A stretch of DNA of 64,000 nucleotides from positions 7,609-71,608 of the forward strand of contig CAIVUX010000022.1 in NCBI GenBank assembly GCA_903909215.1, written 5' to 3'. The notes under the pieces were generated by a model. The model searched no databases. It worked only from the letters and a program-made list of their open reading frames with translations, and had not been told where the DNA came from. This DNA comes from an uncultured Ferrovum sp. (GTDB lineage: Bacteria; Pseudomonadota; Gammaproteobacteria; Burkholderiales; Ferrovaceae). Position numbers and translations under genes: made by a program. Each line of letters starts with the position of its first letter. Positions within the stretch are counted from its first letter, which is position 1. Shown in pieces: positions 430-55,755 of this stretch.

Positions 430-2766
430 TTATTTCTTCTTTTTGGGTTTAGTGGGCACTGCTTTAGGTGCTTTAGAGGTCGCTTTAGGTGCTTTAGAGG
501 TCGCTTTAGGTGGTTTAGGGGTCTGACCCCGTTTTGCCGCTTTAGGGGTCTGACCCCGGGTTGCCTGTTTTGTCGGTTTTGGGGTCTGACCCCGGTCTGA
601 GGCGGTGACAGATTCTGGTACAAAGTCGATCTTATTGGTTTCCATATCCACCCGCACCAACTGCACACGCACGCGATCGCCTAGGCGATAACGCATGCCG
701 GTGCGTTCGCCCAATAACTGATGGCGTGTGGCGTCATAGCGGAAATAATCGGTGCCCAATTCAGAAATATGCACCAACCCTTCCACATACACTTCATCCA
801 ACGCCACAAACAAACCAAAACTGGTCACCGAGCTGACAGAGCCTGAGAACACTTCACCCACACGGTCTTTCATGTAGAAACACTTGAGCCACGCTTCCAC
901 ATCACGGGTGGCGTCATCCGCCCGACGTTCCGTAAGCGAACAATGAGCCCCAATGGCTTTCCAATCGCCTGGTGCGTAAGTGCTATTGCCCAACACCGCC
1001 CGAATGGCACGATGCACCAGCAAATCGGGATAGCGGCGAATAGGCGATGTGAAATGCGCATACGCTGCATACGCCAAGCCAAAGTGACCGACATTTTCTG
1101 GGTTGTACTGCGCTTGCTGCAAGGAGCGCAACAAGACCGTTTCCAGCAGGCGTTGGTCGGGGCGGCCTTGAATCTTTTTAATAAGCTCGGCGTAATCCGC
1201 CGCTTTGGGTTTATCGCCTCCGGCCAAGTGCAAACCAAATTCTCCCAAGAAATCACGCACCATGGTAAGGCGCTCTGGGGCAGGCACGGGATGAATACGA
1301 TACAAGCAAGCATGTTGATGGCTGGACAAATAATCCGCAGCACAGACGTTGGCCGCCAACATGCATTCTTCAATTAACCGATGGGCGTCGTTGCGCTCAA
1401 CCGGCAAAATGGTTTCAATTTTGCCGCGATCGTCAAATACCATGCGCGTTTCATCGCTGGCAAAATCAATAGCGCCGCGCACCGCACGAGCGGCCAAAAA
1501 TACATGGAAAACTTTTTCTAGGTTTTGCAGCTGAGGAATAATGGGGCGTCGTGCAGAATCCGCCCGCTGTGGGGCTTCCAGAATAGCCGCCACTTCTGTG
1601 TAGGTTAAGCGGGCATGAGAATGCATCACTGCAGGATAAAAACGATACTCGGAAATCTGGCCCTCAGCACTCACCTGCATATCGCACACCATGCATAGGC
1701 GATCTACATTGGGATTGAGTGAACAAAGGCCGTTACTTAAGGCTTCAGGCAGCATGGGTATAACGCGACGAGGAAAATACACACTGTTGCCACGCTCATA
1801 GGCGGTTAAGTCCAACGCATCCTTGGGGCGCACATAAAACGACACGTCCGCAATGGCCACCACCAAGCGATGTCCGTCGCCAGAGGGCTCGGCAAACACG
1901 GCATCATCAAAGTCGCGTGCGGTTTCGCCATCAATGGTGACGAGAGGCAGCTTGCGCAAATCCACACGGCCCTTAATATCCTCTTCCCGCACACCAGCGG
2001 GCAGTTGGGCCGCCAATGCTTCCGCCGCAGGCGAGAACTCGTGAGGCAATTCGTGTTTGCGCAGCGCAATTTCCACTTCCATACCGGGGTCAGCGTAATT
2101 GCCCAACACCTCTACCACACGAGCGATGGGCTCTGATTGTCGGCTGGGCTGCGCCATTAATTCAATCATCACCACTTGGCCGGGGTTAGCGCCATGATGT
2201 TGGCCAGGGGACACCAAAATATCTTGGCTGATGCGCTTGTTCTCCGCCACAGCAAACAGCACTCCTTGCTCTTGAAACAAACGCGCCACCAAACGCGTGT
2301 TCACATGCTCCAAAATTTCCACAATGGTACCCTCTGGGCGGCCACGGGTATCGGTACCAATGGTGCGCACCATGACGCGATCACCATGCAAGACGCGTTG
2401 CATTTCGCGCGTGCCCAAAAAGATGTCGCTGCCGCCGTCTTCACGAATGGCAAAACCGAAACCTTCTGGATGTCCTTCCACGCGCGCTGAAACCAAATCC
2501 AGTTTGGCCGGCAAACAAAGTGCGTTTTTGCGATTGCGCATCAATTGACCATCACGCTCCATGGCGCGCAGGCGACGAGAAAACAACTCGCGCTCGCTCT
2601 CTTGAATGGTGAGCAGTCGTTCAATGCGCTCCACGGTCACCGGCACCCCCTCTTGGGAGAGAATTTGCAAAATGAACTCACGGCTGGGCAAAGGCTCAGG
2701 GTATTGGGTTTTTTCACGCTCCAGATGAGGATCTTGGAGTCGCAGGGGGGTATTTTCTGTTGACAA
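430..2766 (-). CDS. rnr: Ribonuclease R (3'-5' exoribonuclease) with a Lys/Pro-rich repeat-bearing C-terminal tail
   Basis: 778-aa ORF. It carries RNB-domain motifs (VTIDGETARDFDDAV, HFGLAYAAYAHFTSPIRRYPDL), a C-terminal S1 domain and a basic tail. It is collinear with E. coli RNase R as I remember it. TTG at 2766 is the only in-frame start upstream of the conserved DPxxEREK N-terminus. Confidence 0.95.
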   Translation of the reverse strand: MSTENTPLRLQDPHLEREKTQYPEPLPSREFILQILSQEGVPVTVERIERLLTIQESERELFSRRLRAMERDGQLMRNRKNALCLPAKLDLVSARVEGHPEGFGFAIREDGGSDIFLGTREMQRVLHGDRVMVRTIGTDTRGRPEGTIVEILEHVNTRLVARLFQEQGVLFAVAENKRISQDILVSPGQHHGANPGQVVMIELMAQPSRQSEPIARVVEVLGNYADPGMEVEIALRKHELPHEFSPAAEALAAQLPAGVREEDIKGRVDLRKLPLVTIDGETARDFDDAVFAEPSGDGHRLVVAIADVSFYVRPKDALDLTAYERGNSVYFPRRVIPMLPEALSNGLCSLNPNVDRLCMVCDMQVSAEGQISEYRFYPAVMHSHARLTYTEVAAILEAPQRADSARRPIIPQLQNLEKVFHVFLAARAVRGAIDFASDETRMVFDDRGKIETILPVERNDAHRLIEECMLAANVCAADYLSSHQHACLYRIHPVPAPERLTMVRDFLGEFGLHLAGGDKPKAADYAELIKKIQGRPDQRLLETVLLRSLQQAQYNPENVGHFGLAYAAYAHFTSPIRRYPDLLVHRAIRAVLGNSTYAPGDWKAIGAHCSLTERRADDATRDVEAWLKCFYMKDRVGEVFSGSVSSVTSFGLFVALDEVYVEGLVHISELGTDYFRYDATRHQLLGERTGMRYRLGDRVRVQLVRVDMETNKIDFVPESVTASDRGQTPKPTKQATRGQTPKAAKRGQTPKPPKATSKAPKATSKAPKAVPTKPKKKK
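461..523. repeat. 21-bp tandem repeat (about 3 units of gctttaggtgctttagaggtc) inside the rnr 3' end
   Basis: Units at 461-481 and 482-502 are identical. A third diverged unit at 503-523 runs into the first palindrome copy. On the minus strand it encodes KATSKAP-KATSKAP in the RNase R tail. Confidence 0.9.
518..593. repeat. Three direct copies of the 13-bp palindrome GGGGTCTGACCCC (518-530, 545-557, 581-593) within the rnr tail
   Basis: Exact matches read from the sequence. Each is translated on the minus strand as R-G-Q-T-P-K. Spacing between copies is 27 and 36 nt, both multiples of 3. Confidence 0.95.
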
Positions 2767-2787
2767 AATCAGGGTGTCCTTTATAAT
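2760..2787 (+). promoter_or_regulatory. Near-consensus sigma70-type promoter (TTGACA-N16-TATAAT), probably driving tRNA-Leu
   Basis: TTGACA at 2760-2765 and TATAAT at 2782-2787, about 64 nt upstream of the tRNA 5' end. The -35 hexamer overlaps the rnr TTG start on the opposite strand. Confidence 0.5.
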
Positions 2788-2850
2788 CCTACGGTTACGC
2801 GCAGTGGGAAGTGTTTGCCGGTTGTTTTAGGCCGACCCTCTCACTATCGT

Positions 2851-2937
2851 GCCCAGATGGCGGAATTGGTAGACGCACTAGGTTCAGGTCCTAGCGGTGG
2901 CAACACTGTGGAGGTTCGAGTCCTCTTCTGGGCACCA
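2851..2937 (+). tRNA. tRNA-Leu (anticodon CAG), class II with long variable arm, CCA encoded
   Basis: Acceptor stem GCCCAGA/TCTGGGC. D-arm GCGGAATTGGTAGACGC. Anticodon stem-loop CTAGG-TTCAGGT-CCTAG. Long variable arm, T-loop GGTTCGAGTCC, and 3' ACCA. Confidence 0.95.
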
Positions 2938-2967
2938 CCTGAAGTTCCAAAAACGCCGCAGCGACGC

Positions 2968-4281
<1,314 letters not shown>

Positions 4282-4299
4282 TCAATCTAAAATAAAGAA

Positions 4300-5271: not shown

Positions 5272-5293
5272 TTCACCACCCGGAAGAGTCCAG

Positions 5294-22990: not shown

Positions 22991-23902
22991 CTATTTTGGT
23001 TTCTTGGGGGCGGTTAACCCCAAGGTGCGGTGTGTGAGAGCGGGCAAGCTTAAACGCAAATCGGCCAAGTGAATGGGGTTTACGCCGGCAATGACAATGC
23101 CAGAACCGCGCGGCAATTGGTCGAGAACCACGCCCCAAGGATCCACAATCATACTGGAGCCATGGGTTTCACGACCATTCTTGTGATAACCCCCTTGCGC
23201 GGGCGCCACCACATAGGCCAGGTTTTCAATGGCGCGTGCACGGATCAGGGTTTCCCAATGGGCGCGGCCCGTGGTCTCGGTAAATGCTGAGGGGATAAAA
23301 ATTAAATCCACCGAACCCATGGCGCGGTAGAGCTCGGGAAAGCGCAAGTCGTAGCAGATGGATAGACCAATACGTCCGAAGGGGCTGTCGAGAGCCACTA
23401 CTTCATCGCCCGGTTGAATGGTTTTTTCTTCTTCGTAATGCTCAGCGCCCCGCCTAAAGCCAAACAAATGAATTTTGTCGTAACGGGCTACGCAATGGCC
23501 TTCGCTATTAAACACCAGGCAACTGTTGCGAATTTTTTTAGGGTCAGACCCCGTTAAGGGGGCTGACCCCTTAATCGTTTTAATCGGCACCGAGCCGCCC
23601 ACAATCCACACGCCATAACGCACCGCGGCACGTGCCAGAAATTCTTGAATGGGGCCTTTGCCAAAATCTTCTGCAGCGTTAATTTTATCTGTTTCACGCA
23701 TGCCCATAATGGCGAAATATTCTGGTAATGCCACAATAGAGGCACCTTGATCTGCCGCCATTTTAATGAGTCGACCGGCTTCAGATAGGTTTCCACCCAC
23801 ATTAGGACCCGAGGCCATCTGGATGGCGGCCACGCGAAAACTACCCGGTAAAGGGCGCGCTTTACCAAATCCTGAATCAATTTTTTTAGGGGAAACGCTC
23901 AT
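22991..23902 (-). CDS. Carbon-nitrogen hydrolase (nitrilase superfamily) protein
   Basis: The Glu-Lys-Cys triad contexts are present: VALPEYF, RYDKIHLF, GLSICYDLRFPE. The start was trimmed to the ATG at 23902 (MSVSPKK...), 10 nt downstream of the yhdP stop. The gene carries a palindrome pair in a loop (KGSAPLTGSDPKK). Confidence 0.85.
   Translation of the reverse strand: MSVSPKKIDSGFGKARPLPGSFRVAAIQMASGPNVGGNLSEAGRLIKMAADQGASIVALPEYFAIMGMRETDKINAAEDFGKGPIQEFLARAAVRYGVWIVGGSVPIKTIKGSAPLTGSDPKKIRNSCLVFNSEGHCVARYDKIHLFGFRRGAEHYEEEKTIQPGDEVVALDSPFGRIGLSICYDLRFPELYRAMGSVDLIFIPSAFTETTGRAHWETLIRARAIENLAYVVAPAQGGYHKNGRETHGSSMIVDPWGVVLDQLPRGSGIVIAGVNPIHLADLRLSLPALTHRTLGLTAPKKPK
23540..23570. repeat. 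Degenerate inverted pair of the 13-bp palindrome (AGGGTCAGACCCC, then gttaa, then GGGGGCTGACCCC)
   Basis: Each copy differs from GGGGTCWGACCCC at one position. On the minus strand it is read as G-S-A-P-L-T-G-S-D-P inside the CN-hydrolase gene. Confidence 0.85.
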
Positions 23903-30378: not shown

Positions 30379-31037
30379 CTGTTTTGAAATACGTCGGCCA
30401 GTAAGTCCACGTCCTGCAAAATACCTTTATCCTCCACATCCACCCAAGTAATGCTTAGAGCATGGCGTTGCAACAGTGAGCGCGCCCCTTCATCACCTCG
30501 CAGTGCCATAAGCTCATTCCAATAGCGTCGAGAAAAGCCCACCGGATTACCCCGTGACCCCTGATAACACGGCACCACGATATCCGCCCCTTGCTCTAAG
30601 GCTTCTCGCAGCGCCGACACGGTGGAGGACTGTACCCAAGGCATATCGCCCAAGGCAACAATCCAGCCTGCAGCATCCGCGCTGCCCATAAGACCGCTGC
30701 GCAAGCTGAGCGACTGGCTTGGGATTAGTAAATATGGGGTCTGACCCCTGGGGGGGTCAGACCCCATATTTACCGTGTTTACCATGCTGACTAACTTCAA
30801 GTCAGCGGAGGTTACAGACACCACTGTTAAATTGGGACGCGAGGCGCCTATGGGGTTTTGTTGCAAAACGGCGCATAGGGGGGATGAGTCATCAGGCACC
30901 ACCGCCAGACTTTGCTGCAACGAGACCAAGCATTGAGCGGCGCGTACCACTACCGGCACGCCTTCTAATGCATGCAGTAATTTGTTGCTGCCAAAGCGTG
31001 AACTCTGCCCTGCGGCCAACAAAATTCCCACGATCAT
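30375..31037 (-). CDS. MobA-like NTP transferase (MocA-type molybdenum cofactor cytidylyltransferase) carrying a palindromic-element insertion
   Basis: N-terminus GILLAAGQSSRFGSNKLL and GDMPWV are typical of the MobA/MocA family. An ATGA overlap links it to xdhC. At 220 aa it is about 25 aa longer than the family members I remember, and the extra segment coincides with the repeat at 30729-30772. Confidence 0.8.
   Translation of the reverse strand: MIVGILLAAGQSSRFGSNKLLHALEGVPVVVRAAQCLVSLQQSLAVVPDDSSPLCAVLQQNPIGASRPNLTVVSVTSADLKLVSMVNTVNMGSDPPRGQTPYLLIPSQSLSLRSGLMGSADAAGWIVALGDMPWVQSSTVSALREALEQGADIVVPCYQGSRGNPVGFSRRYWNELMALRGDEGARSLLQRHALSITWVDVEDKGILQDVDLLADVFQNS
30729..30772. repeat. Perfect 20-bp inverted repeat: TAAATAT-GGGGTCTGACCCC, a 4-nt spacer (tggg), then GGGGTCAGACCCC-ATATTTA
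   Basis: Read directly from the sequence. On the minus strand it is translated in frame as V-N-M-G-S-D-P-P-R-G-Q-T-P-Y-L inside the MocA-like gene. A second 7-bp-stem hairpin, GCTGACT/AGTCAGC, lies at 30786-30806. Confidence 0.95.
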
Positions 31038-32087: not shown

Positions 32088-32351
32088 CTAAAAAAAACGG
32101 TGCAACTGCTTATAAATCCACAGCAATAGATAGCTGCTGGTGGCGATTAAACCCAATACGGTAACAAGGGGACGATCTTGCAACTCCATCATCAACGCCC
32201 ACCAAACCTGCCCACTACCCGTATGAGACAAGGCCTCTGGGGTTGAAAAAGCCTCGCGGCCCGATGCATTTAAAGCGGCACGTTCGGTTAGTGCTGCAAA
32301 CAAACATTTGCGTTGAGAAAACGACAGTCCGGGCATAGGCAGGTGTTTCAT
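32088..32351 (-). CDS. Hypothetical small membrane protein translationally coupled to trbL
   Basis: 87 aa with a single C-terminal TM segment (LVTVLGLIATSSYLLLWIY). Its ATG shares one nucleotide with the trbL TAA (TAATG at 32349-32353). I recognise no family. Confidence 0.45.
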   Translation of the reverse strand: MKHLPMPGLSFSQRKCLFAALTERAALNASGREAFSTPEALSHTGSGQVWWALMMELQDRPLVTVLGLIATSSYLLLWIYKQLHRFF

Positions 32352-33364
32352 TATTCATCTCCGTAATGGCGTTCTCTGGCGCTTTGTGCGCGCAACTGTT
32401 TGCCCATCCAATCATTGGCCTTATTCATACCCGATTGAATGCTGCGGCTGGAGGTGGTGGCAAAACCGGTGTCCACACGGGCATGCCCCACTAGGGCTGC
32501 GGCAATCTGTGGCACATGGCCCATCAAATAAGCCATGATGGAGGCCGTAATAATCAGCAACACAGCCAGCGCCATGGAATCTGTGGGACTGGCGTTGGTT
32601 AAGGTGGAGGAATTGGCTGTAATCCATTGTTGCAGCTGAATAAAGACCGGTTTGCTCATGGCCAGAACGGTGACAGAAATAACACGGTAGAAACAAGCGA
32701 TAAACAAAAACCGCACCCAGGACATGAAGAATTCTTTGGTGATATCCCACAGCAGCCATGGAATAAAAAACGGCCCCAAGGCCAAAGCCAAACCCGCCAA
32801 TGCGCTGCCCATCACATGAATGACGGCCAGGATGGCCAAAGCCACAATGAACACGCAAAGCGCCACAAAGAGCAGCAACACCGTCACCATCCAGCCCCCC
32901 AAAGCCCCCCAAAAAGCCCACGACAGTGGCGTGGCGCCACTGATAAAACGATCGGGGCTGCCGGCAATGGAATCCCAAACGGTCACGATGATGTCCATGA
33001 ACACGCTCCACGCACTGGCAAACCCTTGTGTATCACCATTGGAACCTGCAATGGCGGTCACCAATGCCTCGCACCCTTGATAAATACCTTGGTAAAAAAT
33101 AAAGTCGTAAGACTGCATAAACCACGCAACCAAACCGGCTAAAAAGAGAAAACGCAGGAGGCGCGATAGAATTTTTCCGAGACTATCCCCAGCCAAGGAC
33201 TCCAACAGCACATTCACGCCAAACCAAGACAAGGTAAGCAGTAACAGCGATCCGTATAAACTGTTTGAGACATCCGTCAGTTTGGTATTTAATGCGTGGC
33301 CTCCTTCCAAAAAAGCCTGTGCAAACTGATCGATAATGGCAGGTGATAAGGTGACGGTCGTCAA
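32351..33364 (-). CDS. trbL: P-type T4SS inner-membrane protein TrbL/VirB6
   Basis: 337 aa, polytopic (5-6 TM segments), in the canonical position after trbJ. A TTG start lies 3 nt after the trbJ stop. It is shorter than many TrbL proteins because it has no long C-terminal Pro/Gly tail. Confidence 0.75.
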   Translation of the reverse strand: MTTVTLSPAIIDQFAQAFLEGGHALNTKLTDVSNSLYGSLLLLTLSWFGVNVLLESLAGDSLGKILSRLLRFLFLAGLVAWFMQSYDFIFYQGIYQGCEALVTAIAGSNGDTQGFASAWSVFMDIIVTVWDSIAGSPDRFISGATPLSWAFWGALGGWMVTVLLLFVALCVFIVALAILAVIHVMGSALAGLALALGPFFIPWLLWDITKEFFMSWVRFLFIACFYRVISVTVLAMSKPVFIQLQQWITANSSTLTNASPTDSMALAVLLIITASIMAYLMGHVPQIAAALVGHARVDTGFATTSSRSIQSGMNKANDWMGKQLRAQSARERHYGDE

Positions 33365-33367
33365 GGC

Positions 33368-34177
33368 CTATCGCCCTGTACTCATAATGCCCCAACCCAA
33401 AGTAGATTCCTGTCCCTGCAATTGCAGGTGAAGTTGCTGAACCTTAGCCGCATCATCCTGCCGACGCTGCTGAATGATTTCACCAGCCATCTGATTGGCA
33501 CTCGCCTCATCTTGCGCTTTGGCTGTGGTATTGGCCTGAGAACCCGCCATAAGTGCAATCAGTTGCGCATTTTGACCGGCCATTAAATTAAGATGTTGGT
33601 TAACGGTTTGAAAGCTTTGTTGCAATCCACTACTGGCAGGAATTTGCTCTTGCAACAACAGCACGCGCGCATACGCATCATTTACCCCTTGCAATGCAGC
33701 AACCTGCCCCTGGAAAACGGTCTGCAGGCTCTGGCCGCGGTATTGCGCCACTTGCATCTCACGACTCATGTAGTCGCTGGGAGTAACACCCATGGCCGCC
33801 ATTTGGCGAAACTGCGTGTTAAATGTTGATTGCGCACCGTTTTGTTGGATCAGTAGCGTGGTTAATGATTGCGATAACGACTGTGCTGTGCTGAGTTCGC
33901 TGCTATACGAATTTAAAGTCTGGTTGAATGTGGTTTGTGGAAATTTTTGTAGGTTTTGTAATTCGATGATGTATTGCTGAACCTGCAACAGATAGGATTG
34001 CACCATTTGTGCCGTTTGGCGAATAGAGTTGGCAGCCGTTACGGCAGTTTCTGCGTAATTGGCAGGATCAAATACGGTGATACCCATTCCTTCACACGCC
34101 AGCGCGAGCAGAGAGAGGCTTAGCGCGCCCAACAGACGCACAAATAATGCCGGCCGCACGTGATGCAACACATTCAT
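33368..34177 (-). CDS. trbJ: P-type T4SS protein TrbJ/VirB5-like
   Basis: Signal peptide followed by a VFDPANYAETAVTAANSIRQ motif and a long Gln-rich helical region typical of TrbJ. An ATG at 34177 forms an ATGA overlap with the trbE stop; the track starts one TTG codon earlier. Confidence 0.75.
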   Translation of the reverse strand: MNVLHHVRPALFVRLLGALSLSLLALACEGMGITVFDPANYAETAVTAANSIRQTAQMVQSYLLQVQQYIIELQNLQKFPQTTFNQTLNSYSSELSTAQSLSQSLTTLLIQQNGAQSTFNTQFRQMAAMGVTPSDYMSREMQVAQYRGQSLQTVFQGQVAALQGVNDAYARVLLLQEQIPASSGLQQSFQTVNQHLNLMAGQNAQLIALMAGSQANTTAKAQDEASANQMAGEIIQQRRQDDAAKVQQLHLQLQGQESTLGWGIMSTGR

Positions 34178-36663
34178 CAAACACCCCGCCCTATTTCTAA
34201 CAAATACTCACTGGCCCAATCTGGGTGGGTTGAGTGATAATGCCGATCAAACACCGCCTGAGCCTTGGCATCCGAACGCAACCAACCCAGCAACGCTTGC
34301 GGAAAGGCCGCCTCCACCAGTTGGCTGCCGGCCGGGGTTTCGATGTAGTAATGTCGCTTTTCTATGGCACGCTCAATACGGTGAATTTGCGCATCATTCA
34401 AACCAAATTGCTTTCGGTACAGTTCACGATGCACAAAGGCTTGTCGATTGGGTAAAAACACACGGGTGGGGATATTATCGGCAATAGTCGAAAATATTTC
34501 TGAGCTGGATAAATCATCTAAGGATTGCGTAGCCAATACCAATGAACCCAATTTTTTAGGTATGGTTTTTAGCCAATCGCGAATACGTGCTGAAAAGTAC
34601 GGATCGGATAACATAAACCAAGCTTCCTCCACGTAAATCAGGGTAGGAATGCCCGGCCCACTATTAAGCGCCTCGCTCACTCTAAAAAAAGCATATTCCA
34701 AAAACGCTCTGGCCACACGGGTGTCGCGCAGCACCGCCGCCATTTCAATGCATGTAAAAGCAGTTAATGTAAACGTGTCTTCCAATTGATCAAAATAACC
34801 GCCCATGGGGCCACCGGCCAACCAAGGCTCTAGTTCAGCACTCAGGTGGCGGGGCAATAAGCCATGCAGACTTTTAAGTTGATGCAGATGGGGCGATAAG
34901 GCCGCCAATCCCTCAATGGCCTGCCACAGGGCATTGTCATCACCCGCCACCAAATGGTAACCGCGTGCGGTAATTAAGATCTCAATCCATTGTGCCAACC
35001 ATTGATGATGGCGCTCTTGTGCAACCAATAGCAGTGGATTTAGTCGTACCCGCCCATCCGACACATCAATACATCGCCCGCCTTGCAGCAAGGTGGGAAT
35101 GCGGCATGAGCGGTCTTTATCAAAAATGATGGTGCGTACAGGATGGTATTTTTGAAACTGGCTGAGCACAAAATTAACCCATACGGATTTACCGCTGCGC
35201 GAGGGGCCCACCACAAAGGCGTGAGCCAAATCGTGGTGATGCAAATTAAAGTAATAAGGACTACCAGTGGGTGTATTAAATAAAGTGAGCGCTGGAGCAG
35301 GACGACTTGTTTGCTGTGCTAGGTAAACGTTTACTCGTTCACCATTAGTATTAGAACGAATGGGACATAAATCGGACCAGTTGGCGGTATTGATAAAATG
35401 CCAACGCACCAACTCGCCCCACTGACCGGGCAAGGTTCCTGCCCACGCCGAATTAAGATGCAAACGTTCGCGCAACAATAAAAAACCGTGAGTTCGAATG
35501 GAAGAAGCCACTAACCCCAATCCTTCATCGAGCGCATCCAAGGTTTTGGCGTAAACCATGGCCGTGAGGTTATGATACCCAAACACCCGTTGTGAGGACG
35601 CCATCTCTGTTAAGGCATCCCGTGCATCACCTGCAGAAATGGCGCGCCCCGTGTCTTTTACCACGCTCTCTTCCCCGGACAACGCTTCTCGCACAAAACT
35701 GAACAAAGATTTTTGCAAGTTAAGATGAAATCTTTGCACATTCTTGATATAACTCTTGGCCGAGTCCGTATCCACCAAGCGAAACACTTGCGACAATGTT
35801 AATTCAGCGGGTACGGTAAGCACGTCATCTAACATCTGCGGAAATGTCGTGCTGGGCCATCCTTTAATGGCCAATGCGCCACCCAAGCGCAAATGTTCCA
35901 CTCCTTCAAAACGAATATGATCTCCATTGACCACCACCCGATCTTCTCCTAAGGCGGTATCCAAATATCCCTCTGCCGGAATGCATGGCGCCGCCTCACG
36001 CCGCGTGGCGGGACTGGTGACTTCATGCAAAAAACCAATTAAATCCACCCCTTCTAAGCGCACAGGGCCCAAAGACTGTAAGGTGCCAGAAAAATAACCG
36101 AGCAATTCTTCAAATCGTTCTATGCGCCGCAATAAAACTTGCTCATCATGAAGGTAGGCTTCACTGTGAAAAAAATGCCGACTCGTGGTTTTCCATAATC
36201 GGTACAGCACCCCTCCGTCACCGTGCCCCGCAGCCCTCGCCAGCTCACTCCATAATCCATCATGGTGCTTGTCCAGTGAAAATAACACGCTGATGAAATG
36301 ACGATTGTAAAAATGAGGTTCGCCGGCAAGAGACTGTCGATAGAGGGCGTCGATGGTGGCGCTGCCCAGATGTTCAAAAGTGCCTTGTGGGTAATCGTGC
36401 CATTCACGACGCAACACCGTAGACCATAGGGTAAAACGATGGTCAAAATTACGCAGTGCCTGTTCAAATAACACAACACCGTGATCAATAGCCCCACCCT
36501 CTAAACCCTCCACCGCCATACCACGCAACGAAAAGCAGGCCAGCAAACCACCATCTTTATTAAGGATTAGCCCAGGTTTTATATGAATCAGCCACGGCAA
36601 CACTTCAGCCAGACCACGCGAACGGCCATCAAAACCCAAGGCCCGTCGTTTAATATTTAGCAT
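34177..36663 (-). CDS. trbE: T4SS ATPase TrbE/VirB4
   Basis: 828 aa. Walker A GPSRSGKS, a Walker B-like IYVEEAW, and the LATQSLDD motif. Size and position match TrbE. Confidence 0.9.
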   Translation of the reverse strand: MLNIKRRALGFDGRSRGLAEVLPWLIHIKPGLILNKDGGLLACFSLRGMAVEGLEGGAIDHGVVLFEQALRNFDHRFTLWSTVLRREWHDYPQGTFEHLGSATIDALYRQSLAGEPHFYNRHFISVLFSLDKHHDGLWSELARAAGHGDGGVLYRLWKTTSRHFFHSEAYLHDEQVLLRRIERFEELLGYFSGTLQSLGPVRLEGVDLIGFLHEVTSPATRREAAPCIPAEGYLDTALGEDRVVVNGDHIRFEGVEHLRLGGALAIKGWPSTTFPQMLDDVLTVPAELTLSQVFRLVDTDSAKSYIKNVQRFHLNLQKSLFSFVREALSGEESVVKDTGRAISAGDARDALTEMASSQRVFGYHNLTAMVYAKTLDALDEGLGLVASSIRTHGFLLLRERLHLNSAWAGTLPGQWGELVRWHFINTANWSDLCPIRSNTNGERVNVYLAQQTSRPAPALTLFNTPTGSPYYFNLHHHDLAHAFVVGPSRSGKSVWVNFVLSQFQKYHPVRTIIFDKDRSCRIPTLLQGGRCIDVSDGRVRLNPLLLVAQERHHQWLAQWIEILITARGYHLVAGDDNALWQAIEGLAALSPHLHQLKSLHGLLPRHLSAELEPWLAGGPMGGYFDQLEDTFTLTAFTCIEMAAVLRDTRVARAFLEYAFFRVSEALNSGPGIPTLIYVEEAWFMLSDPYFSARIRDWLKTIPKKLGSLVLATQSLDDLSSSEIFSTIADNIPTRVFLPNRQAFVHRELYRKQFGLNDAQIHRIERAIEKRHYYIETPAGSQLVEAAFPQALLGWLRSDAKAQAVFDRHYHSTHPDWASEYLLEIGRGV

Positions 36664-36980
36664 GGTAGTGCACGCCCAAAACCATCAGGACGTGGGTTGC
36701 GTTTTATGCGCACATGCGGCCATGGGTCGTAACTGTCTGCTTGATGGTTGTAACGCACATAAATAAGCCGTGTGAAGGGGTCATCTAAGGTGATGCGGCG
36801 CAAAATGAGATGCGCCAATACGGCGATGGGTACCCAGCCCCAGAGGTGTAAATCGCCCACCAGGGCTATGGCCAAGGTGCCGTTTACGATGGCAAATGGT
36901 TTTTCAACGCCGGCAATGAGCAAGGGCTCTACCAAGGCCAAATGCAATGCGCTGCGACGACGCTGAGATACCGTGCTCAC
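36657..36980 (-). CDS. trbD: T4SS protein TrbD/VirB3
   Basis: About 107 aa with a hydrophobic hairpin (LAIALVGDLHLWGWVPIAVLAHLIL). A GTG at 36980 forms a GTGA overlap with the trbC stop, and the gene overlaps trbE by 7 nt. Confidence 0.75.
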   Translation of the reverse strand: MSTVSQRRRSALHLALVEPLLIAGVEKPFAIVNGTLAIALVGDLHLWGWVPIAVLAHLILRRITLDDPFTRLIYVRYNHQADSYDPWPHVRIKRNPRPDGFGRALPC

Positions 36981-37327
36981 AAACAACCCGGTATGCTAAC
37001 GCCTGGGAACAATGCGGTAATGATACTGGCTACAGAAAGCGCGCAGGAAAGGCCCAACAACCATCCCCCAATGCGCGCCACGATACCCCCTGTTTCAGAA
37101 TACATAAACATAATGCCAATCATGATGGTGGCCACCACGGATAACATGACGGCCACTTGGTCCTTAAGGCTGGCGGCTACGGCACACATGGGGCCTTCCC
37201 AGGGCATTGCGGTGCTGGCCTCAAGCGGGCCTGCTGCGGCACATAGCAAGAACAGCAATAGTGCGCTTGCACCCAGATGCAAATTAATGGCTAAATAAAA
37301 CGTGCGTTTGGTAGTGGCCATCGCCAT
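36977..37327 (-). CDS. trbC: T4SS pilin precursor TrbC/VirB2
   Basis: Signal-like N-terminus plus two hydrophobic helices (VAVMLSVVATIMIGIMFMY / WLLGLSCALSVASIITALF). GGAGGGG lies upstream of the ATG codons at 37327 and 37321, so the exact start is uncertain. The longer track ORF runs back into trbB. Confidence 0.7.
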   Translation of the reverse strand: MAMATTKRTFYLAINLHLGASALLLFLLCAAAGPLEASTAMPWEGPMCAVAASLKDQVAVMLSVVATIMIGIMFMYSETGGIVARIGGWLLGLSCALSVASIITALFPGVSIPGCL

Positions 37328-38300
37328 ACCCCTCCACAGAAATAAGCTTTTCAATTTGGCGCACACCATTGCGTCGTGTAAGGTGCACCACGCCATCAAT
37401 ACAATTGGAAATATGCCGAGCAATAGCCTCTATTGCCAAACCCACGCCGCTTTGCATGACCAGTTGCTCCAGGCGATGCAAGGCGTCTTGCGCACTATTG
37501 GCATGCAAGGTGCCCAAGCAGCCGTCATGACCGGTGTTCATGGCCTGAATTAAATCGAAGGCTTCGCCTCCACGCACTTCACCCACCACAATTCGATCTG
37601 GGCGAAAGCGCAAGGATTGACGCACCAAATCGCGCACCGTCACACCCAATGTTTGGTTGGCCTCAAAGGTCACATAATTGGGAAGATCGATAGTCAATTC
37701 GCGCGGGTCTTCAATCGCAATAATGCGATCACTGCAGGACATGACCTTAATTAAGGCATTTAAAAAAGTGGTTTTCCCTGTACTGGTTCCACCGCTCACC
37801 AAGATATTCTTGCGATACTTAACCCAATCCGTAAGCTGATCCAATGGTTCTGCGCCCACTTGGAACTCTTTGCTCAACAGATTCTGGGCTTCTTGAGCGC
37901 TGGTTGCGGAGGGGGTTTGTGGCAGATAGTCAGACAGTGACCGTAGAGCGCCGGACAACTTGCGAATGCATAGCGCATGGCCTTTTGTGGCAATAGGCGA
38001 GAGCACAGCGGACACCCGCATGCCACTAAAAGCAGCGTCCAATAGCGAAGGGCCATTGTGCCGACCCACATCACGCTGGGCCATGGTGCCTAAAATATGA
38101 ATGGCATTGCGTGCTTCATGACTTGAAAACGCATGTTCGGTTTTATGCAAACACCCTGCGCGCTCTACCCATACATCGTCAGCACCATTAATCATGACCT
38201 CGCGCACCATGGGGTCGTCCAACAACGCCACCAAGGGGTTTAAGGAATCGCGCAACATAAGAGAGAGGTGTTGGTGCATGTCTGGGTTCATGCAAACCAT
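37284..38300 (-). CDS. trbB: T4SS/secretion ATPase TrbB/VirB11
   Basis: 338 aa. Walker A GGTSTGKTTFLNAL, a DRIIAIEDPREL Asp box, a RPDRIVVGEVRG Walker B, and a His box (GHDGCLGTLHAN). The exact start (one of the M codons at 38300-38259) is unclear, and no good SD is present. Confidence 0.88.
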   Translation of the reverse strand: MVCMNPDMHQHLSLMLRDSLNPLVALLDDPMVREVMINGADDVWVERAGCLHKTEHAFSSHEARNAIHILGTMAQRDVGRHNGPSLLDAAFSGMRVSAVLSPIATKGHALCIRKLSGALRSLSDYLPQTPSATSAQEAQNLLSKEFQVGAEPLDQLTDWVKYRKNILVSGGTSTGKTTFLNALIKVMSCSDRIIAIEDPRELTIDLPNYVTFEANQTLGVTVRDLVRQSLRFRPDRIVVGEVRGGEAFDLIQAMNTGHDGCLGTLHANSAQDALHRLEQLVMQSGVGLAIEAIARHISNCIDGVVHLTRRNGVRQIEKLISVEGYGDGHYQTHVLFSH

Positions 38301-39469: not shown

Positions 39470-40510
39470 ATGAATCCATCGCCACTTTTCTCCTCAAACC
39501 CTAAGGCTAGCCCCTTTCGAGCCCCCAGATGGCTGGGTGATCCTCATGCACAAACCCTCTATGGCGCCCTATTAGCACCCGTCGGCACGCCGCTCTGGCA
39601 ACGCGAAACATGGACCACCCCCGACAATGACTTTATCCATGTGGATACCCTAGAGGGGGCGCCCGACGCACCCTTACTGGTGATTTTTCATGGGCTGGAA
39701 GGCAGTACCAACTCACGCTACAGCCGCGCGTTAGCCCTTGCAACACAGGCACGGGGTTGGCGTGTATGCGCGCCCAACTTTAGAAGTTGTAGCGGCATCA
39801 TGAATCGCGCTCCGCGTCTGTATCATGCAGGCGACAGTGCCGAGATTGACTGGATTTTAAAACGCGCCTGGACCTTGGGGTCAGACCCCACTACTCTTGT
39901 GGGGTCTGACCCCAAAGTGCAACGACCCATGTTCGCGGTAGGCGTATCTTTGGGCGGCAACATGTTGCTGAAGTGGTTGGGCGAGCAAGGCGCTACAGCC
40001 AAACCTATCCTACATGCCGCCGCCGCCGTGTCTGCACCCCTGGATTTGGCTGCTGTGGCGGAAAACCTGTCTTTGGGTTTTAACCGCGTCTACACCCACC
40101 ATTTCTTAAGCACCCTTAAACAAAAGGCGCGCGCCAAATACGCACAGCACCCACACCTGTTCGACTTACACCGCACGCTGTCCTCGCGCACCATGCGTGA
40201 CTTTGACGATCACTTCATGGGACCGGTGCATGGCTTTCGTGATGCCGAAGATTATTGGGCACGCTCTAGCAGCACACCGTTTTTGCCGCTGATTCAGGTG
40301 CCCACGCTGTTATTAAACGCTCAGGATGACCCTTTTATGCCCGCCGGCGTGTTGCCTAATGCCCGCCAATGCGCCACGGCTGTTAGACGCGACTTTTCAG
40401 CACAAGGCGGTCATGTGGGATTTGTGTCTGACGGTTTTCCCGGCCATTTAAAGTGGATGCCGCAGCGGGTATTGGATTTTTTGGCGTCCTCTTTAAACCC
40501 AATCAGGTAA
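39470..40510 (+). CDS. Alpha/beta hydrolase, YheT/ABHD1-3-like, carrying a palindrome-pair insertion
   Basis: Contains HGLEGS, a nucleophile elbow GVSLGGN, and a C-terminal DDPF...GGHVGF. An ATG at 39470 follows the TTG used by the track. An extra segment, LGSDPTTLVGSDPK, lies just before the nucleophile elbow. Confidence 0.8.
   Translation: MNPSPLFSSNPKASPFRAPRWLGDPHAQTLYGALLAPVGTPLWQRETWTTPDNDFIHVDTLEGAPDAPLLVIFHGLEGSTNSRYSRALALATQARGWRVCAPNFRSCSGIMNRAPRLYHAGDSAEIDWILKRAWTLGSDPTTLVGSDPKVQRPMFAVGVSLGGNMLLKWLGEQGATAKPILHAAAAVSAPLDLAAVAENLSLGFNRVYTHHFLSTLKQKARAKYAQHPHLFDLHRTLSSRTMRDFDDHFMGPVHGFRDAEDYWARSSSTPFLPLIQVPTLLLNAQDDPFMPAGVLPNARQCATAVRRDFSAQGGHVGFVSDGFPGHLKWMPQRVLDFLASSLNPIR
39877..39913. 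repeat. Inverted pair of the 13-bp palindrome (GGGGTCAGACCCC, an 11-nt spacer, GGGGTCTGACCCC)
   Basis: Both copies are perfect. It is read on the plus strand as G-S-D-P-T-T-L-V-G-S-D-P within the hydrolase gene. Confidence 0.95.
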
Positions 40511-49190: not shown

Positions 49191-49248
49191 ATAGAAAGAG
49201 AGGATGCGGGAAAAACCCGATAAATTCAAGAGCTGAGCACATAAAGCT

Positions 49249-50703: not shown

Positions 50704-51351
50704 TTAGGGTGGTAATAGCTTGTTTCTTAAGGCTATTAAAGTTAACTCGGCTTGGTTTTTCGCGGCCAGCTTTTGTTTGATGTTGTACAGATGGGTCCCC
50801 ACAGTGCGGGGGCTTAAAAACAAGGTTTCGGCAATCTGTGCCACAGACTGTCCGGCTGCCAAATGCATAAACACTTCAAACTCACGCTCAGAGAGCACTT
50901 CCACGGGGTTAGAAGACCCAGAAAGAGATTCTTCAACCAGCGCTGAGGCCAAGTGAGGGTCCAGATAGGTTTCATTGCGCGACACTTGCCAGAGGGCTTT
51001 GATGAGCTCTTCTGCCGCACTGCGTTTGGACAAATAACCGCGCGCGCCGGCGGCCATGAGGCGCCGTGGGTGCACGGTATCTTCATGAGCCGAGAGAATC
51101 AATATGCGCGCATCGGGGTGATGGGCCAGAATGCGACTTAAGGCCTCCATGCCTCCAATGCCTGGCATAGACACATCCATCACCAGTACATCGGGCAAGG
51201 CCTCAGGGTAAATACGGCACGCCGCCTCGCCACTGTCGGCCTCGGCGCATACCACCATGTCACCACCGCCCTCCACCAACATACGAAATCCCATGCGCAC
51301 CACCGCATGATCATCTGCCAACATGACACGCAAAGGATGCGCACTCTTCAC
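50704..51351 (-). CDS. NarL/FixJ-family response regulator (REC + LuxR-type HTH)
   Basis: REC motifs (LADDH, DVLVMDVSMPG) and a C-terminal LSEREFEVFMHLAAGQSVAQIAETLFLSPRTVGTHLYNIKQKL. A GTG at 51351 forms a GTGA overlap with the kinase stop. An alternative ATG lies at 51324. Confidence 0.85.
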   Translation of the reverse strand: MKSAHPLRVMLADDHAVVRMGFRMLVEGGGDMVVCAEADSGEAACRIYPEALPDVLVMDVSMPGIGGMEALSRILAHHPDARILILSAHEDTVHPRRLMAAGARGYLSKRSAAEELIKALWQVSRNETYLDPHLASALVEESLSGSSNPVEVLSEREFEVFMHLAAGQSVAQIAETLFLSPRTVGTHLYNIKQKLAAKNQAELTLIALRNKLLPP

Positions 51352-52709
51352 GAAGGTCCCCCTAAGGGCAAGAATACCTCCACACAAAATCCTTGACCGG
51401 GTGTACTGGTCACGTCAAAACGCCCACCCAACGCCTGCACACGCTCACGCATACCCAATACACCAAAACGGTTATCCTTCATTTCGTCCAACGCCATACC
51501 ACGGCCATCATCCGCCACGCGAATGGTTAATTCCTGAGGTTGCGCCGTCACCGTCACCTCGATGGTTTCGGCTTCGGCGTGACGCACAGTGTTGGTCAAA
51601 CATTCTTGCACCACACGATAAACAGTAATGCGCAAAAAGTCAGGCAACGCTTCTAAGTCACCAACCAACGTAATCAACAGATGATGCTCTGGATAGAGGT
51701 TGCGATGCGTGCGCACCAAATCATTGAGCGCCTCGCTAAGGCCTAAATTATCCAAGGCCAAGGGGCGCAATTGCCGCACCATACGGTGCATGGCGTCATA
51801 CATGGTGCCCGATACGGAAACAATCGCTTGTGCGCGCTCAGTCATTTCAGGATGAGTGGCAGCGCTCTGCTGTGCAATCGTGGTGGCAATGGTGCGCACG
51901 GCGGTCACCGACTGCCCCAACTCATCATGCAATTCACGGGCCAAGTTACGCCGCTCGTCTTCTAAGTGCGACTGAATAAGGGCCGACACTTCGCGACTGT
52001 CTTGTAGCTCTTGTGCGGTTCTGGCCGCAGCTTTTTTAATCAGAAAGCTCTCTTCCACTGCTTGAGCCATACGATTAAAAGCCCGTCCCAACAATGCCAT
52101 CTCGCGCATACGCCAATTGGGTAAGCGGGTGTGAAATTCCTTTCTCTCCATTTGCTCTAATCCCAAAATGAGATCACGCAAAGGCGCCAAAGCACGCCCC
52201 ACAATCACATACAGTACCGCATTCACCAAAACGAAAAAAGCCAGTACCAACCAAAGAATTTTTTGCAATTCATCCCATGCGTCCACCACAGAACGCGAGG
52301 CATCGGGGGCAATGACCATATGCCCCCCTGGAAACTCAATGGATACAGGGGACGCTTGCGGAGTTACCCATTCGGCAAACCAAAGTGGGGCGTAATGACC
52401 GGCTTTATATTGAAAAGGAGGAGATTTATAAACCAATAGATCCGCAGCATTGTAGAGCGCAATGTCATGTGCCCGTACGCGCCCCACACGGTTCATGAAC
52501 TCCACCAACAGTTTGGGCGTAACGGCCTGTCCATTAGAAACCACGTCATGCATCATGGTGCCCAATAGTTGCACCGTAATACGAGTGGATCCTTCCATCT
52601 CCTCTCGAATACTGCGCCGTGATGCATCCACTTCTAAAAACAGCAAGGCCGAGATGAACAGAATCATCAAGGTGGTAATGAGCAAGTTAATTTGATTGCG
52701 CAGCGTCAT
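51348..52709 (-). CDS. Sensor histidine kinase, HisKA_3 (NarX/UhpB-like) with two TM segments and a HAMP domain
   Basis: H-box ELHDELGQSVTAV and an HATPase_c region (DDGRGM ... GVLGMRERV ... GGRF). Trimmed to MTLRNQ (ATG at 52709). The track extension reads through the intergenic palindromic element. Confidence 0.85.
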   Translation of the reverse strand: MTLRNQINLLITTLMILFISALLFLEVDASRRSIREEMEGSTRITVQLLGTMMHDVVSNGQAVTPKLLVEFMNRVGRVRAHDIALYNAADLLVYKSPPFQYKAGHYAPLWFAEWVTPQASPVSIEFPGGHMVIAPDASRSVVDAWDELQKILWLVLAFFVLVNAVLYVIVGRALAPLRDLILGLEQMERKEFHTRLPNWRMREMALLGRAFNRMAQAVEESFLIKKAAARTAQELQDSREVSALIQSHLEDERRNLARELHDELGQSVTAVRTIATTIAQQSAATHPEMTERAQAIVSVSGTMYDAMHRMVRQLRPLALDNLGLSEALNDLVRTHRNLYPEHHLLITLVGDLEALPDFLRITVYRVVQECLTNTVRHAEAETIEVTVTAQPQELTIRVADDGRGMALDEMKDNRFGVLGMRERVQALGGRFDVTSTPGQGFCVEVFLPLGGPS

Positions 52710-52775
52710 AAAAAAACAAACCAAAATTTCAATCACATATGATACCAGAGCGAGCGCTCTGCCCCGCTCTGGGGC

Positions 52776-52819
52776 ATAATTTGGGGTCAGACCCCGCATG
52801 GGGTCTGACCCCAAATTAT
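52776..52819. repeat. Perfect 20-bp inverted repeat: ATAATTT-GGGGTCAGACCCC, a 4-nt spacer (gcat), then GGGGTCTGACCCC-AAATTAT. Intergenic.
   Basis: Read directly from the sequence. It has the same architecture as 30729-30772. It lies in the divergent kinase/folA promoter region and ends 13 nt before the folA ATG at 52833. Confidence 0.95.
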
Positions 52820-52832
52820 GAAATGGACGACC

Positions 52833-53333
52833 ATGACACAACCCAAGCTATCCCTCATTGTGGCCATGACCCCCGAGCGGGTGATTGGGGCCCATAACAC
52901 CATGCCCTGGCATTTGCCGGCGGACTTGGCTTTTTTTAAGGCCACCACCATGGGTTGCCCTATTGTTATGGGCCGAAAAACCTTTCAATCCATTGGTCGG
53001 CCCCTGCCTGGTCGGCGCAACATTGTGCTGACCCGTGATAAACAATTTTCAGCTGCCGGCATTGAAGTAGCCTATTCCATCGAAAAAGCACTGGAGAGTT
53101 GCGCGGGTGTAGGAGAGGTTTTTGTTATTGGCGGCGCTGAATTATTTGAGTCCACCTTGAGCGCTGCGCAACGCATTTATCTCACACACATTGACGCCCA
53201 CCTAGAGGGCGATACGTTTTTTCCAGAATTAGAAAACGGAGCCTGGCATGAAACGTCGCGCCGCACTCATCCACGGGATGAGCGCAACGCGTACAACCTA
53301 AGTTTTAGAGTGCTGGAACGTACGGCCTGCTGA
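52833..53333 (+). CDS. folA: Dihydrofolate reductase
   Basis: Contains LSLIVAMTPERVIGAHNTMPWHLPADLAFFK and GRKTFQSIGRPLPGRRNIVLT. An ATG at 52833 is preferred over the track start at 52818, which lies inside the repeat arm. Confidence 0.93.
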   Translation: MTQPKLSLIVAMTPERVIGAHNTMPWHLPADLAFFKATTMGCPIVMGRKTFQSIGRPLPGRRNIVLTRDKQFSAAGIEVAYSIEKALESCAGVGEVFVIGGAELFESTLSAAQRIYLTHIDAHLEGDTFFPELENGAWHETSRRTHPRDERNAYNLSFRVLERTAC

Positions 53334-53762
53334 TTAACGCTTTGGCGTTTCTGTTTTTTTGGCTGTTGCAGACGATGCCGTGGAAGCCGATGAGAAAGGA
53401 TTCGCCGTGGGCGTACCCTTGGATGAGCCCTCGGCTGGTTTTTCCATGCCCATCATGGCCCAAGGCCAAAGAGCCGGATTCATCATAGGGTTATCCCCCG
53501 CAGCCATACTCCCAGGCTTAGGCGCCCCCTCTTTGGCAGGAGTAACCAACGCTTTTTGGTATTCCAAGGTTTTAATGGTGAGTTCTAGCATGCTGACATT
53601 GGTGCTGAGCCAATACTTAACAGTAGTGAGCTCATTAATTTTCTTCTCTAATTCTTCAGGGTTTAAAGCGCCCATCATTAAACTTTGTAATGGAAAAGAC
53701 ATGGGGTTAATCATCTTCTGAAACATTTCAAATACTTCACCGGACGGTTTTTCGTTAGACAT
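53334..53762 (-). CDS. Hypothetical protein, possibly a PhaM-like PHA-granule-associated protein
   Basis: 142 aa. It has a coiled-coil segment (PEELEKKINELTTVKYWLSTNVSMLELTIKTLEYQKAL) and a low-complexity basic C-terminus. It lies immediately downstream of phaZ. The family call is from memory and context only. Confidence 0.4.
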   Translation of the reverse strand: MSNEKPSGEVFEMFQKMINPMSFPLQSLMMGALNPEELEKKINELTTVKYWLSTNVSMLELTIKTLEYQKALVTPAKEGAPKPGSMAAGDNPMMNPALWPWAMMGMEKPAEGSSKGTPTANPFSSASTASSATAKKTETPKR

Positions 53763-53764
53763 GA

Positions 53765-54985: not shown

Positions 54986-55039
54986 TCACATCCTCTGGGC
55001 CAACGGCCCCATACAACGATTTATAACCGTTACAGACTC

Positions 55040-55069
55040 ATTATGTTGCGTTGCACAAGCCGCTGTCAA
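55040..55069 (-). promoter_or_regulatory. Candidate sigma70 promoter for phaZ (TTGACA-N18-CATAAT on the minus strand)
   Basis: The reverse complement of 55064-55069 is TTGACA and of 55040-55045 is CATAAT, about 55 nt upstream of the phaZ ATG. A GAGGA SD precedes the start. Confidence 0.45.
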
Positions 55070-55095
55070 CGCTGTATATCAAATGGATGCCCTAA

Positions 55096-55755
55096 TCATC
55101 GACGCGCTGGCCCAGGTGCTTGATTTAATACCTGATATAGCTCCACCAGAATACCGGCCGTGGCACCCCAAATATGCCAATCCTGATAGGGAATGCTGTA
55201 ATAGCGCCGTTTCTGGCCCGCCCTCATAACTTCCTTAATCACGTGACGCGTTGGATCAAAGAAATGTTCCAGGGGCACTTCAAAAATTTCAGCCACTTCA
55301 AACTCATCGGCTTTAAGGGTTAGCGGGGGCTGCACCCAACCCACCACAGGAATGACGCGATACCCCGTGGGAATAAAATATTCCCGCAAGGTGCCCAGCA
55401 CCTTGACCTGTTGTGGCAACAGACCAATTTCCTCTTCGCTCTCGCGCAAGGCCGTGTGAATTGGATTGGGGTCTGACCCCTCAATGCGTCCACCGGGAAA
55501 GCTAATTTGTCCCGCATGATCACTCAGATGCAAAGTGCGTTTGGTGAGCAGTACATGAACGCCTTCAGGTCGATCCACCAAGGCCACCAATACGGCGGCT
55601 GGAACGGCGGCCAGACAGGCTTCCTCAGTCATCATGATGCGACCATCAAAAAAGGGCGCTGCAGGTGCGGCATTCAAAGAATCTTGAATCCATTCCTGCA
55701 GCGCTTCACGTGCTACTGATGCGTGACGCAAACGCTGAATCAGTGGCATCACCAT
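55096..55755 (-). CDS. NUDIX hydrolase, CoA pyrophosphatase (NudL-like)
   Basis: Nudix box GGRIEGSDPNPIHTALRESEEEIGL preceded by HAGQISFPGG. It is collinear with E. coli NudL as I remember it. Confidence 0.8.
   Translation of the reverse strand: MVMPLIQRLRHASVAREALQEWIQDSLNAAPAAPFFDGRIMMTEEACLAAVPAAVLVALVDRPEGVHVLLTKRTLHLSDHAGQISFPGGRIEGSDPNPIHTALRESEEEIGLLPQQVKVLGTLREYFIPTGYRVIPVVGWVQPPLTLKADEFEVAEIFEVPLEHFFDPTRHVIKEVMRAGQKRRYYSIPYQDWHIWGATAGILVELYQVLNQAPGPARR
55468..55480. repeat. Single perfect copy of GGGGTCTGACCCC inside the Nudix box region
   Basis: Exact match. On the minus strand it is read as E-G-S-D-P-N. Confidence 0.95.

Follow-up and report, generated by a model that had tools for sequence, protein, structure and literature searches.

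Analysis of a 64,000-nt stretch of DNA from an uncultured Ferrovum sp. (contig CAIVUX010000022.1; hereafter the window) led to a 13-base palindrome, GGGGTCWGACCCC, which is repeated across the whole stretch, mostly inside intact genes. The source organism is an uncultured lake betaproteobacterium, whose closest named relatives are Ferrovum-like. We consider the 13-mer to be, probably, the conserved recognition core of non-autonomous miniature elements that resemble repetitive extragenic palindromic (REP) sequences and their hairpin-forming doublets (REPINs), derived from the terminal inverted repeats (TIRs) of a Y1 HUH transposase of the TIRYT type. The sequence family is new and the kind of element is known, while its position here is unusually intragenic.

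The over-representation of the palindrome was confirmed and is real. A search for GGGGTCWGACCCC with up to one mismatch gave 12 matches at six loci, against 0.06 expected and a maximum of one in 100 dinucleotide-preserving shuffles. Ten copies are perfect (518, 545, 581, 30736, 30753, 39877, 39901, 52783, 52800, and 55468) and two have one mismatch (23540 and 23558). A preliminary description of the window had listed the same 12 copies and called them far above chance; every coordinate was recovered, and the shuffles agree with the claim. Matches with 0, 1, 2, and 3 mismatches number 10, 2, 1, and 12, respectively, and perfect copies therefore dominate. Among all palindromes of the 6+1+6 type, GGGGTC is the only arm with more than two occurrences in the window. 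In four of four adjacent pairs the central bases are opposite, and the three copies in rnr are direct, a geometry that had also been described correctly. Additionally, scaffold BUCK21-1_72 of ENA ERZ18623939 (L182), which is 100% identical to the window across the 11.8 kb compared, continues 8.8 kb past its right end and adds three copies of GGGGTCWGACCCC in the last codons of amiC. Window and flank together hold 15 copies in 72.8 kb, or about one copy per 5 kb, and six of the seven loci are within coding sequence, unlike the extragenic location of canonical REPs. The loci are the following:

518-530, 545-557, and 581-593, RNase R gene (430-2766, minus strand): triplet of direct copies, read three times as RGQTPK.
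23540-23570, CN-hydrolase gene (22991-23902, minus strand): decayed inverted doublet with one mismatch per copy.
30728-30773, MocA-like gene (30375-31037, minus strand): doublet forming a 46-nt perfect hairpin, read as GSDPPRGQTP.
39875-39915, alpha/beta-hydrolase gene (39470-40510, plus strand): doublet of 13 + 11 + 13 nt, read as GSDPTTLVGSDP.
52775-52820, divergent spacer between a histidine kinase gene and folA: doublet forming a 46-nt perfect hairpin.
55468-55480, Nudix/CoA-pyrophosphatase gene (55096-55755, minus strand): single 13-mer by the Nudix box, read as EGSDPN.
7401-7447 of L182, about 1.4 kb past the right end of the window, amiC: cluster of three perfect copies with 17-nt spacing.

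The statement that five of the six loci within the window lie in intact genes is supported by Pfam for all five gene identities; specifically, the MocA-like gene is a MobA-like NTP_transf_3 and the alpha/beta-hydrolase gene belongs to Abhydrolase_1. Concerning the reading frames, the copies are indeed read as GSDP or G(Q)TP, as had been claimed. The missing stop-containing frame, which had been put forward together with them, is no independent evidence because it is automatic for any ORF that is still open, and each orientation of the doublet leaves two of three frames open.

The inverted pairs form perfect hairpins of 30-46 nt with stems of up to 21 bp. Both the MocA and the folA-spacer units consist of an 8-nt AT-rich arm, a 13-mer, a 4-nt loop, a second 13-mer and the complementary arm, with the layout GTAAATAT-13-mer-TGGG-13-mer-ATATTTAC in the former and CATAATTT-13-mer-GCAT-13-mer-AAATTATG in the latter. 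With DNA folding, the MocA hairpin reaches -24.4 kcal/mol (z = -9.3) and the folA-spacer hairpin -25.0 kcal/mol (z = -11). The hairpin of the alpha/beta-hydrolase gene has -21.4 kcal/mol (z = -7.5), and the CN-hydrolase unit is degenerate. Inverted doublets with a long hairpin, a high copy number and the dominance of perfect copies are features that the element has in common with canonical REP/REPIN systems. An Rfam scan of the window returned the signal recognition particle RNA and one tRNA only, with no match at the motif.

The history of the element was followed in syntenic contigs of the lineages L127/L170 and L125/L129 and of the 63%-GC relatives L168/L169. Three related lineages carry 2-6 copies per 12-21 kb, and no copy was found in 41 kb of syntenic DNA of L168/L169. 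The MocA and folA-spacer doublets are common to the window, L127/L170, and L125/L129, while those of the CN-hydrolase and alpha/beta-hydrolase genes occur in the window and L127 and are missing from L125; the former two pairs are older than the latter two. The CN-hydrolase gene of L125 is 39 nt (13 aa) shorter, in frame. In L127 the same doublet is perfect and 12 nt longer, the window copy having suffered a 12-nt deletion, and it is by deletion that this copy is decaying. The alpha/beta-hydrolase gene, whose doublet has a loop 3 nt shorter in L127, is likewise longer than that of L125 by 39 nt, or 12-13 aa, in frame. Finally, MocA homologues at ≤50% identity are without the segment of about 26 aa that holds the element. 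In all three genes there is a lineage-specific in-frame insertion that leaves the ORF open and lets the protein be aligned to either side of it, which is the behavior described for the Rickettsia palindromic elements (RPEs). An alignment of orthologues had been proposed beforehand as a check of this concept, and related lineages do differ by in-frame insertions of 39 nt at motif sites. Presence and absence across the lineages indicate that the element is gained, kept and lost on the timescale of species divergence within the clade. The 8-nt arms also differ between lineages, always on both sides together. Those of the MocA doublet are GTAAATAT/ATATTTAC, GTAAGCAT/ATGCTTAC, or TTAACTTT/AAAGTTAA, and those of the folA spacer are CATAATTT/AAATTATG or CGTAATTC/GAATTATG, with compensatory changes in L170 and a doublet also in L129. 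These paired changes point to a constraint on the hairpin or to copying from arm to arm.

In order to place the motif outside this clade, 185,579 species genomes were scanned for two copies within 20 nt, which gave at least 118 loci. Among the matches listed, about 30 loci hold 3-14 copies within 8 kb, and at least seven phyla are represented (Pseudomonadota, Actinomycetota, Acidobacteriota, Planctomycetota, Bacillota, Omnitrophota, and Gemmatimonadota). The flanks of GGGGTCWGACCCC in these genomes are genome-specific and often lengthen the palindrome. The 13+4+13 form was found in Duganella, Rugamonas, Massilia, Parapusillimonas, and Paracandidimonas, where it is apparently intergenic; the long ORFs spanning these pairs of Duganella, Rugamonas, and Paracandidimonas look like high-GC artefacts and were discarded as intragenic cases. 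Three control palindromes of the same composition gave 0, 2, and 0 stretches in viral contigs, where the real pair gave 12. The control palindrome GGGGCTWAGCCCC gave 24 matches in metagenomes and had to be rejected as a neutral control, being itself another REP that lies beside or inside Y1 transposase genes. A doublet of GGGGCTWAGCCCC is found within a Y1 transposase gene in the metagenome contigs L157, L162, L165, and L167, and resembles the REPs that have been reported as in-frame insertions in TnpAY1 subclass 2.4. The case of GGGGCTWAGCCCC supports a general rule that ties palindromes to Y1 transposases.

The connection of the 13-mer with such a transposase comes from an all-against-all comparison of ORFs at the 118 genome loci listed and 12 viral loci, all selected by the motif only. 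Among the matches listed, one ORF family recurs by the motif, at a median distance of 40 nt. It belongs to Y1_Tnp (PF01797, 35-50 bits), bears the HuH and Y---NP signatures, and has a remote similarity to the E. coli TnpA(REP) (PDB 4ER8, E = 0.002). The Y1 gene of Halomonas getboli (L110) lies between three perfect copies on one side and two on the other, and that of a Burkholderiales metagenome-assembled genome (L070) is bracketed by the 18-bp TIR AAATCGGGGTCAGACCAC; in a Comamonadaceae (L080) and a Desulfobulbales (L109) genome a doublet is found just upstream of the Y1 gene. A Y1 HUH gene bracketed by its repeat, as these four genomes present it, is the arrangement of the TIRtrons. One search gave >8000 proteins of this very large family at E ≤ 1e-20, and members sampled without regard to the motif were also studied. 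Their TIRs start with GGGGACAGACCAC in L175-L178, with GGGGTCAGAGCAAA in a member on an Iodobacter plasmid (a 21-bp TIR with an AT-rich outer part), and with GGGGACAGATTTA in a member on a P. aeruginosa plasmid. Among the sampled family members as a whole, GGGGTCAGACCAC is a further TIR start. The TIRs of independently sampled relatives thus begin with GGGG(T/A)CAGA, in agreement with the published GGGGWSAS. In L178 (4475-6081) a complete Y1 unit with GGGGACAGACCAC inverted repeats is located inside a DDE_Tnp_1_6 insertion sequence gene, and an identical transposase occurs in three differing flanking contexts (L175, L176, and L177). The interrupted gene and the three contexts indicate that Y1 units move and that the autonomous form has been recently mobile. 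Concerning the geometry of the doublets, among the matches listed 64 have both GGGGTCAGA ends inward (A..T) and 32 the reverse, in loci that are not phylogenetically independent; the inward form is the arrangement expected of a transposon with its interior deleted. We infer that a transposase of the TIRYT-type family is or was formerly present in the source organism and mobilized the copies. Two abundant environmental family members (P0319 and P0294) were considered as the organism's own transposase and rejected, both being from other organisms.

A putative mechanism can be drawn up on these grounds. The typical unit would be an inverted doublet made of an AT-rich arm of about 8 nt, GGGGTCAGACCCC, a loop of 2-14 nt, GGGGTCTGACCCC, and the complementary arm, and it may represent two transposase ends face to face with the gene deleted. 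As single-stranded DNA, such a doublet would form a hairpin whose stem reaches 21 bp. On the model of IS200/IS605 and TnpA(REP), the transposase, acting in trans, would bind this small G/C hairpin at the replication fork, where the DNA is single-stranded, and would cut and rejoin the DNA so that singlets and doublets are copied to new sites. Most new copies would land in genes because the genome has almost no intergenic space. The copies that survive would be those that are open in the frame of the host gene and lie in loops or tails, where they may add about 13 residues (GSDP...G(Q/L)TP). The presence of one core across phyla would go back to a single transposase family, whose end-recognition sequence is conserved and would play a role analogous to that of the GTAG tag of canonical REPs, although the 13-mer is longer.

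Several observations weigh against this transposase-derived origin. The conserved GTAG/GTGG (GT[AG]G) foot is absent, the flanks being AT-rich and variable (GTAAATAT, CATAATTT, CCTT). No Y1 transposase gene was found by tblastn in the window, in the 8.8-kb extension (L182), or in about 75 kb of DNA of the relatives. A check for a RAYT/IS200-like transposase (RAYT, REP-associated tyrosine transposase) had been suggested in the preliminary description, and its outcome is divided between other genomes, where such a gene flanks the 13-mer, and this clade. Transposase adjacency is seen only in Pseudomonadota and Desulfobacterota and not in the loci of Actinomycetota, Bacillota, and Planctomycetota. 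The best NCBIfam match of the four transposases is NF047646 (REP-associated tyrosine transposase), with 59-77 bits against a cut-off of 80. They are 209-241 aa long with a C-terminal extension of about 80 aa; Pfam gives Y1_Tnp only, even at E ≤ 5, and detected no C-terminal helix-turn-helix domain in these proteins at that threshold. The assignment to subclass 2.1 / group 1 is indirect, resting on the TIR consensus and the literature and not on phylogeny. Furthermore, the empty sites of L125 already hold a half-site, TCAGACCCC at the CN-hydrolase position or CAGAACC. The Nudix copy differs from L170 and L129 (window 55462-55486) by eight substitutions in 18 nt, with no indel. The relatives have GAG CCC TCA GAC ACC/AGA at this site, with a pre-existing TCAGAC and a 9/13 seed, over which the copy looks like it was written; it resembles a replaced sequence patch and not an insertion. 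Neither the half-sites at the empty sites nor a Nudix copy without change of length is predicted by simple insertion.

These last observations lend themselves to a spread without transposase, in which motif-like sequences would be converted by hairpin-templated correction of quasi-palindromes, by short-patch gene conversion from one copy to another, or by a bias of repair or methylation. A repair or methylation bias of that kind has been proposed for the cyanobacterial HIP1. Conversion would account for the growth of the Nudix copy from a 9/13 seed at constant length, with the change of CCC to GGG as the copying expected from the opposite arm, for TCAGACCCC or CAGAACC already standing at the empty sites, for the compensatory changes from arm to arm, and for the dominance of perfect copies. 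Template switching, however, perfects any quasi-palindrome, and the same 13-mer across phyla is left unexplained by it; moreover, doublets of +39 nt with new AT-rich arms are insertions and not corrections, and a transposase family carries the same core at its ends. We regard conversion as an unlikely origin for the element. The compensatory stem changes, together with a 13-mer that is exactly conserved while its flanks diverge, would also suit a signal kept by selection in the host, either the binding site of a dimeric protein or an RNA or DNA hairpin for mRNA stability, attenuation or chromosome structuring. One copy stands 13 nt upstream of the folA start, and E. coli REPs have been co-opted for such roles (cited in PMC3733652). 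[quoted passage not shown] One of them is decaying, their presence varies among close lineages, and a T-tract terminator signature is absent at the motif loci of the window. Selection for such a signal is thus quite improbable as the origin of the element, and binding or RNA folding is possible as a secondary, co-opted use.

The preliminary description had left the choice between REP-like elements or in-frame palindromic mini-elements of the RPE concept and a DNA-uptake sequence (DUS, or uptake signal sequence, USS), which would have accumulated through biased uptake in natural transformation. The high density, the intragenic copies at variable positions and the gain of the Nudix copy by substitution without indel are in the sense of the latter, as is the GTCTGA core that, according to the preliminary description, the motif would share with the Neisseriaceae DUS. 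A DUS should accumulate by substitution in one competent lineage, and only the Nudix copy is derived by substitution. At least seven phyla have multiple copies of this very core, with which Y1 transposase units also end; several copies entered as hairpin insertions of 39 nt, and the 41 kb from the nearest 63%-GC relatives are free of the motif. Neither competence genes nor genes of the ComP type turned up in the window, in which no examination was aimed at them. The DUS and USS of Neisseriaceae and Pasteurellaceae share with the present motif that they are short, over-represented, frequent in coding DNA and found in inverted pairs, but the present motif is palindromic, forms transposase ends, spreads by insertions and is not restricted to a single family. 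An uptake sequence is accordingly very improbable. The mini-element reading is the one borne out by the in-frame insertions of 39 nt, the long hairpins and the flanking transposases in other genomes. Two further candidates were dropped. The Tn3 terminal repeat starts with GGGGTCTGAC; the likeness extends over 10 nt and was judged a coincidence, the present element being 13-46 nt long and tied to Y1 and not to DDE transposases. Mimicry of an anticodon loop (a U33/A37-like loop) was abandoned as unsupported.

The closest described system is that of the TIRtrons, in which Y1 transposase genes (TIRYT) are found between inverted repeats sharing GGGGWSAS, with TIR families dispersed as singles, dimers and clusters, some of them self-complementary (Di Nocera et al., 2013; PMC3733652). 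The TIRYTs correspond approximately to TnpAY1 subclass 2.1, beside whose genes no REP-like structures were reported (Quentin et al., 2018; PMC6006769). High-frequency repeats have been tied to RAYT groups 2 and 3 only; group 1 has the most members and the broadest distribution, Clostridia included (Bertels et al., 2017; PMC5581495). The present element agrees with the TIRtrons in the Y1 HUH gene bracketed by inverted repeats, whose conserved part GGGGTCAG fits GGGGWSAS, in the occurrence as singles, dimers and clusters, with self-complementarity as in some described TIR families, and in the wide taxonomic range, Proteobacteria and Clostridia included. It differs in abundance and location, since the published families are only "moderately abundant" and group 1 has only low-frequency flanking 16-mers, whereas about one copy per 5 kb is present here, mostly intragenic and in frame. 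It also differs in the exact 13-mer GGGGTCWGACCCC, which is missing from the searchable literature: in full text, the 13-mer or its 11-mer core was met only in unrelated primer or viral sequences, and no GGGGTC-type strings were found in the supplement of PMC3733652. The motif had been presented at first as an undescribed one; this stands for the exact sequence and not for the class of element and its GGGGWSAS consensus, both described in 2013 (PMC3733652). We tentatively suggest that GGGGTCWGACCCC may be the recognition hairpin common to the RAYT group with the most members (group 1 / TnpAY1 subclass 2.1, the TIRYTs), a group regarded until now as lacking repeats of its own, which would maintain REPIN-like populations with one core across at least seven phyla and, in streamlined genomes, colonize coding sequence in frame as a source of peptide insertions.

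With the REP/REPIN-RAYT systems of E. coli and Pseudomonas (groups 2 and 3) the element shares the short G/C-rich palindromes with dominant perfect copies, a probable mobile unit in the form of an inverted doublet that folds to a long hairpin, and a cognate Y1 gene flanked by its own repeats (REPtron), as in L110. It is distinguished from them by the lack of the GT[AG]G foot, by transposases only remotely similar to TnpA(REP) and scoring below the NF047646 equivalog cut-off, by one core across phyla where canonical REPs are lineage-specific, and by mostly intragenic copies where canonical ones are extragenic. REPs that lie in frame within genes have been reported, most of them dimers that encode 20-30 aa, with the Rickettsia RPE-4 and RPE-6 among them (PMC3733652). 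The RPEs and the intragenic REPs of Opitutus terrae and Thauera (PMC3733652) are likewise in-frame palindromes in functional genes, often dimers, which add about 13-30 residues in tolerant regions and whose presence varies among related lineages. The sequence family appears to be another: by published description RPE-4 and RPE-6 are CGTC-tagged, which the present motif is not, and they are without an associated transposase; RPE-1 is much longer. In addition, the present host is a betaproteobacterium that lives freely in fresh water and not an obligate intracellular one.

With this motif, a very large and widespread family of Y1 "transposases" gains a concrete DNA substrate that can be tested; the repeats of this family have been treated in published surveys as absent or minor. 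For specialists, the interest lies in the heavy in-frame colonization of genes in a free-living bacterium and in the conserved repeat partner that is implied for an "orphan" RAYT group. REP-type elements can persist mainly in genes where intergenic space is scarce, reshaping the loops and tails of proteins. Presence and absence among close lake populations can be a marker for strain tracking and for dating the activity of the element. Recognition of the element also improves annotation, because gene callers start or extend ORFs within palindromes. The folA-spacer doublet is an example: it lies 13 nt upstream of the ATG of folA (dihydrofolate reductase) at 52833, with the flanking genes confirmed, and the 497-aa ORF with a TTG start that runs across it is over-extended. 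The histidine kinase ORF (window 51348-52841; L170 10232; L182 20000) is begun or extended inside the doublet by ORF finders and in public gene calls, and this start is an annotation artefact that arises because the element is open in frame.

Concerning the remaining loci, the RNase R copies are located in a lysine-rich C-terminal tail (the S1 domain ends at aa 715), where a 27-nt tandem unit includes the motif; this low-complexity tail can tolerate insertions. A separate 21-nt tandem repeat, present three times and encoding KATSKAP units (window 461-523), adjoins the three 13-mers. The amiC copies lie within the last 20 codons or so, in mixed orientation, and the L125/L129 lineage has three copies at the same place with a different spacing and orientation (353, 382, and 399 in L129). 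Apart from the motif loci, a BrnT/BrnA toxin-antitoxin pair is established upstream of xdhC in L125 (8440-8983), in a position where neither the window nor L127 has it. Finally, the window carries at 32351-38300 a set of genes for a type IV secretion system of the VirB/Trb type (a VirB11-like T2SSE, TrbC, VirB3, an 828-aa VirB4, and TrbL), which is conserved in the lineages related to it; L125/L126 have VirB4 in two pieces, of 202 and 342 aa, which suggests decay.

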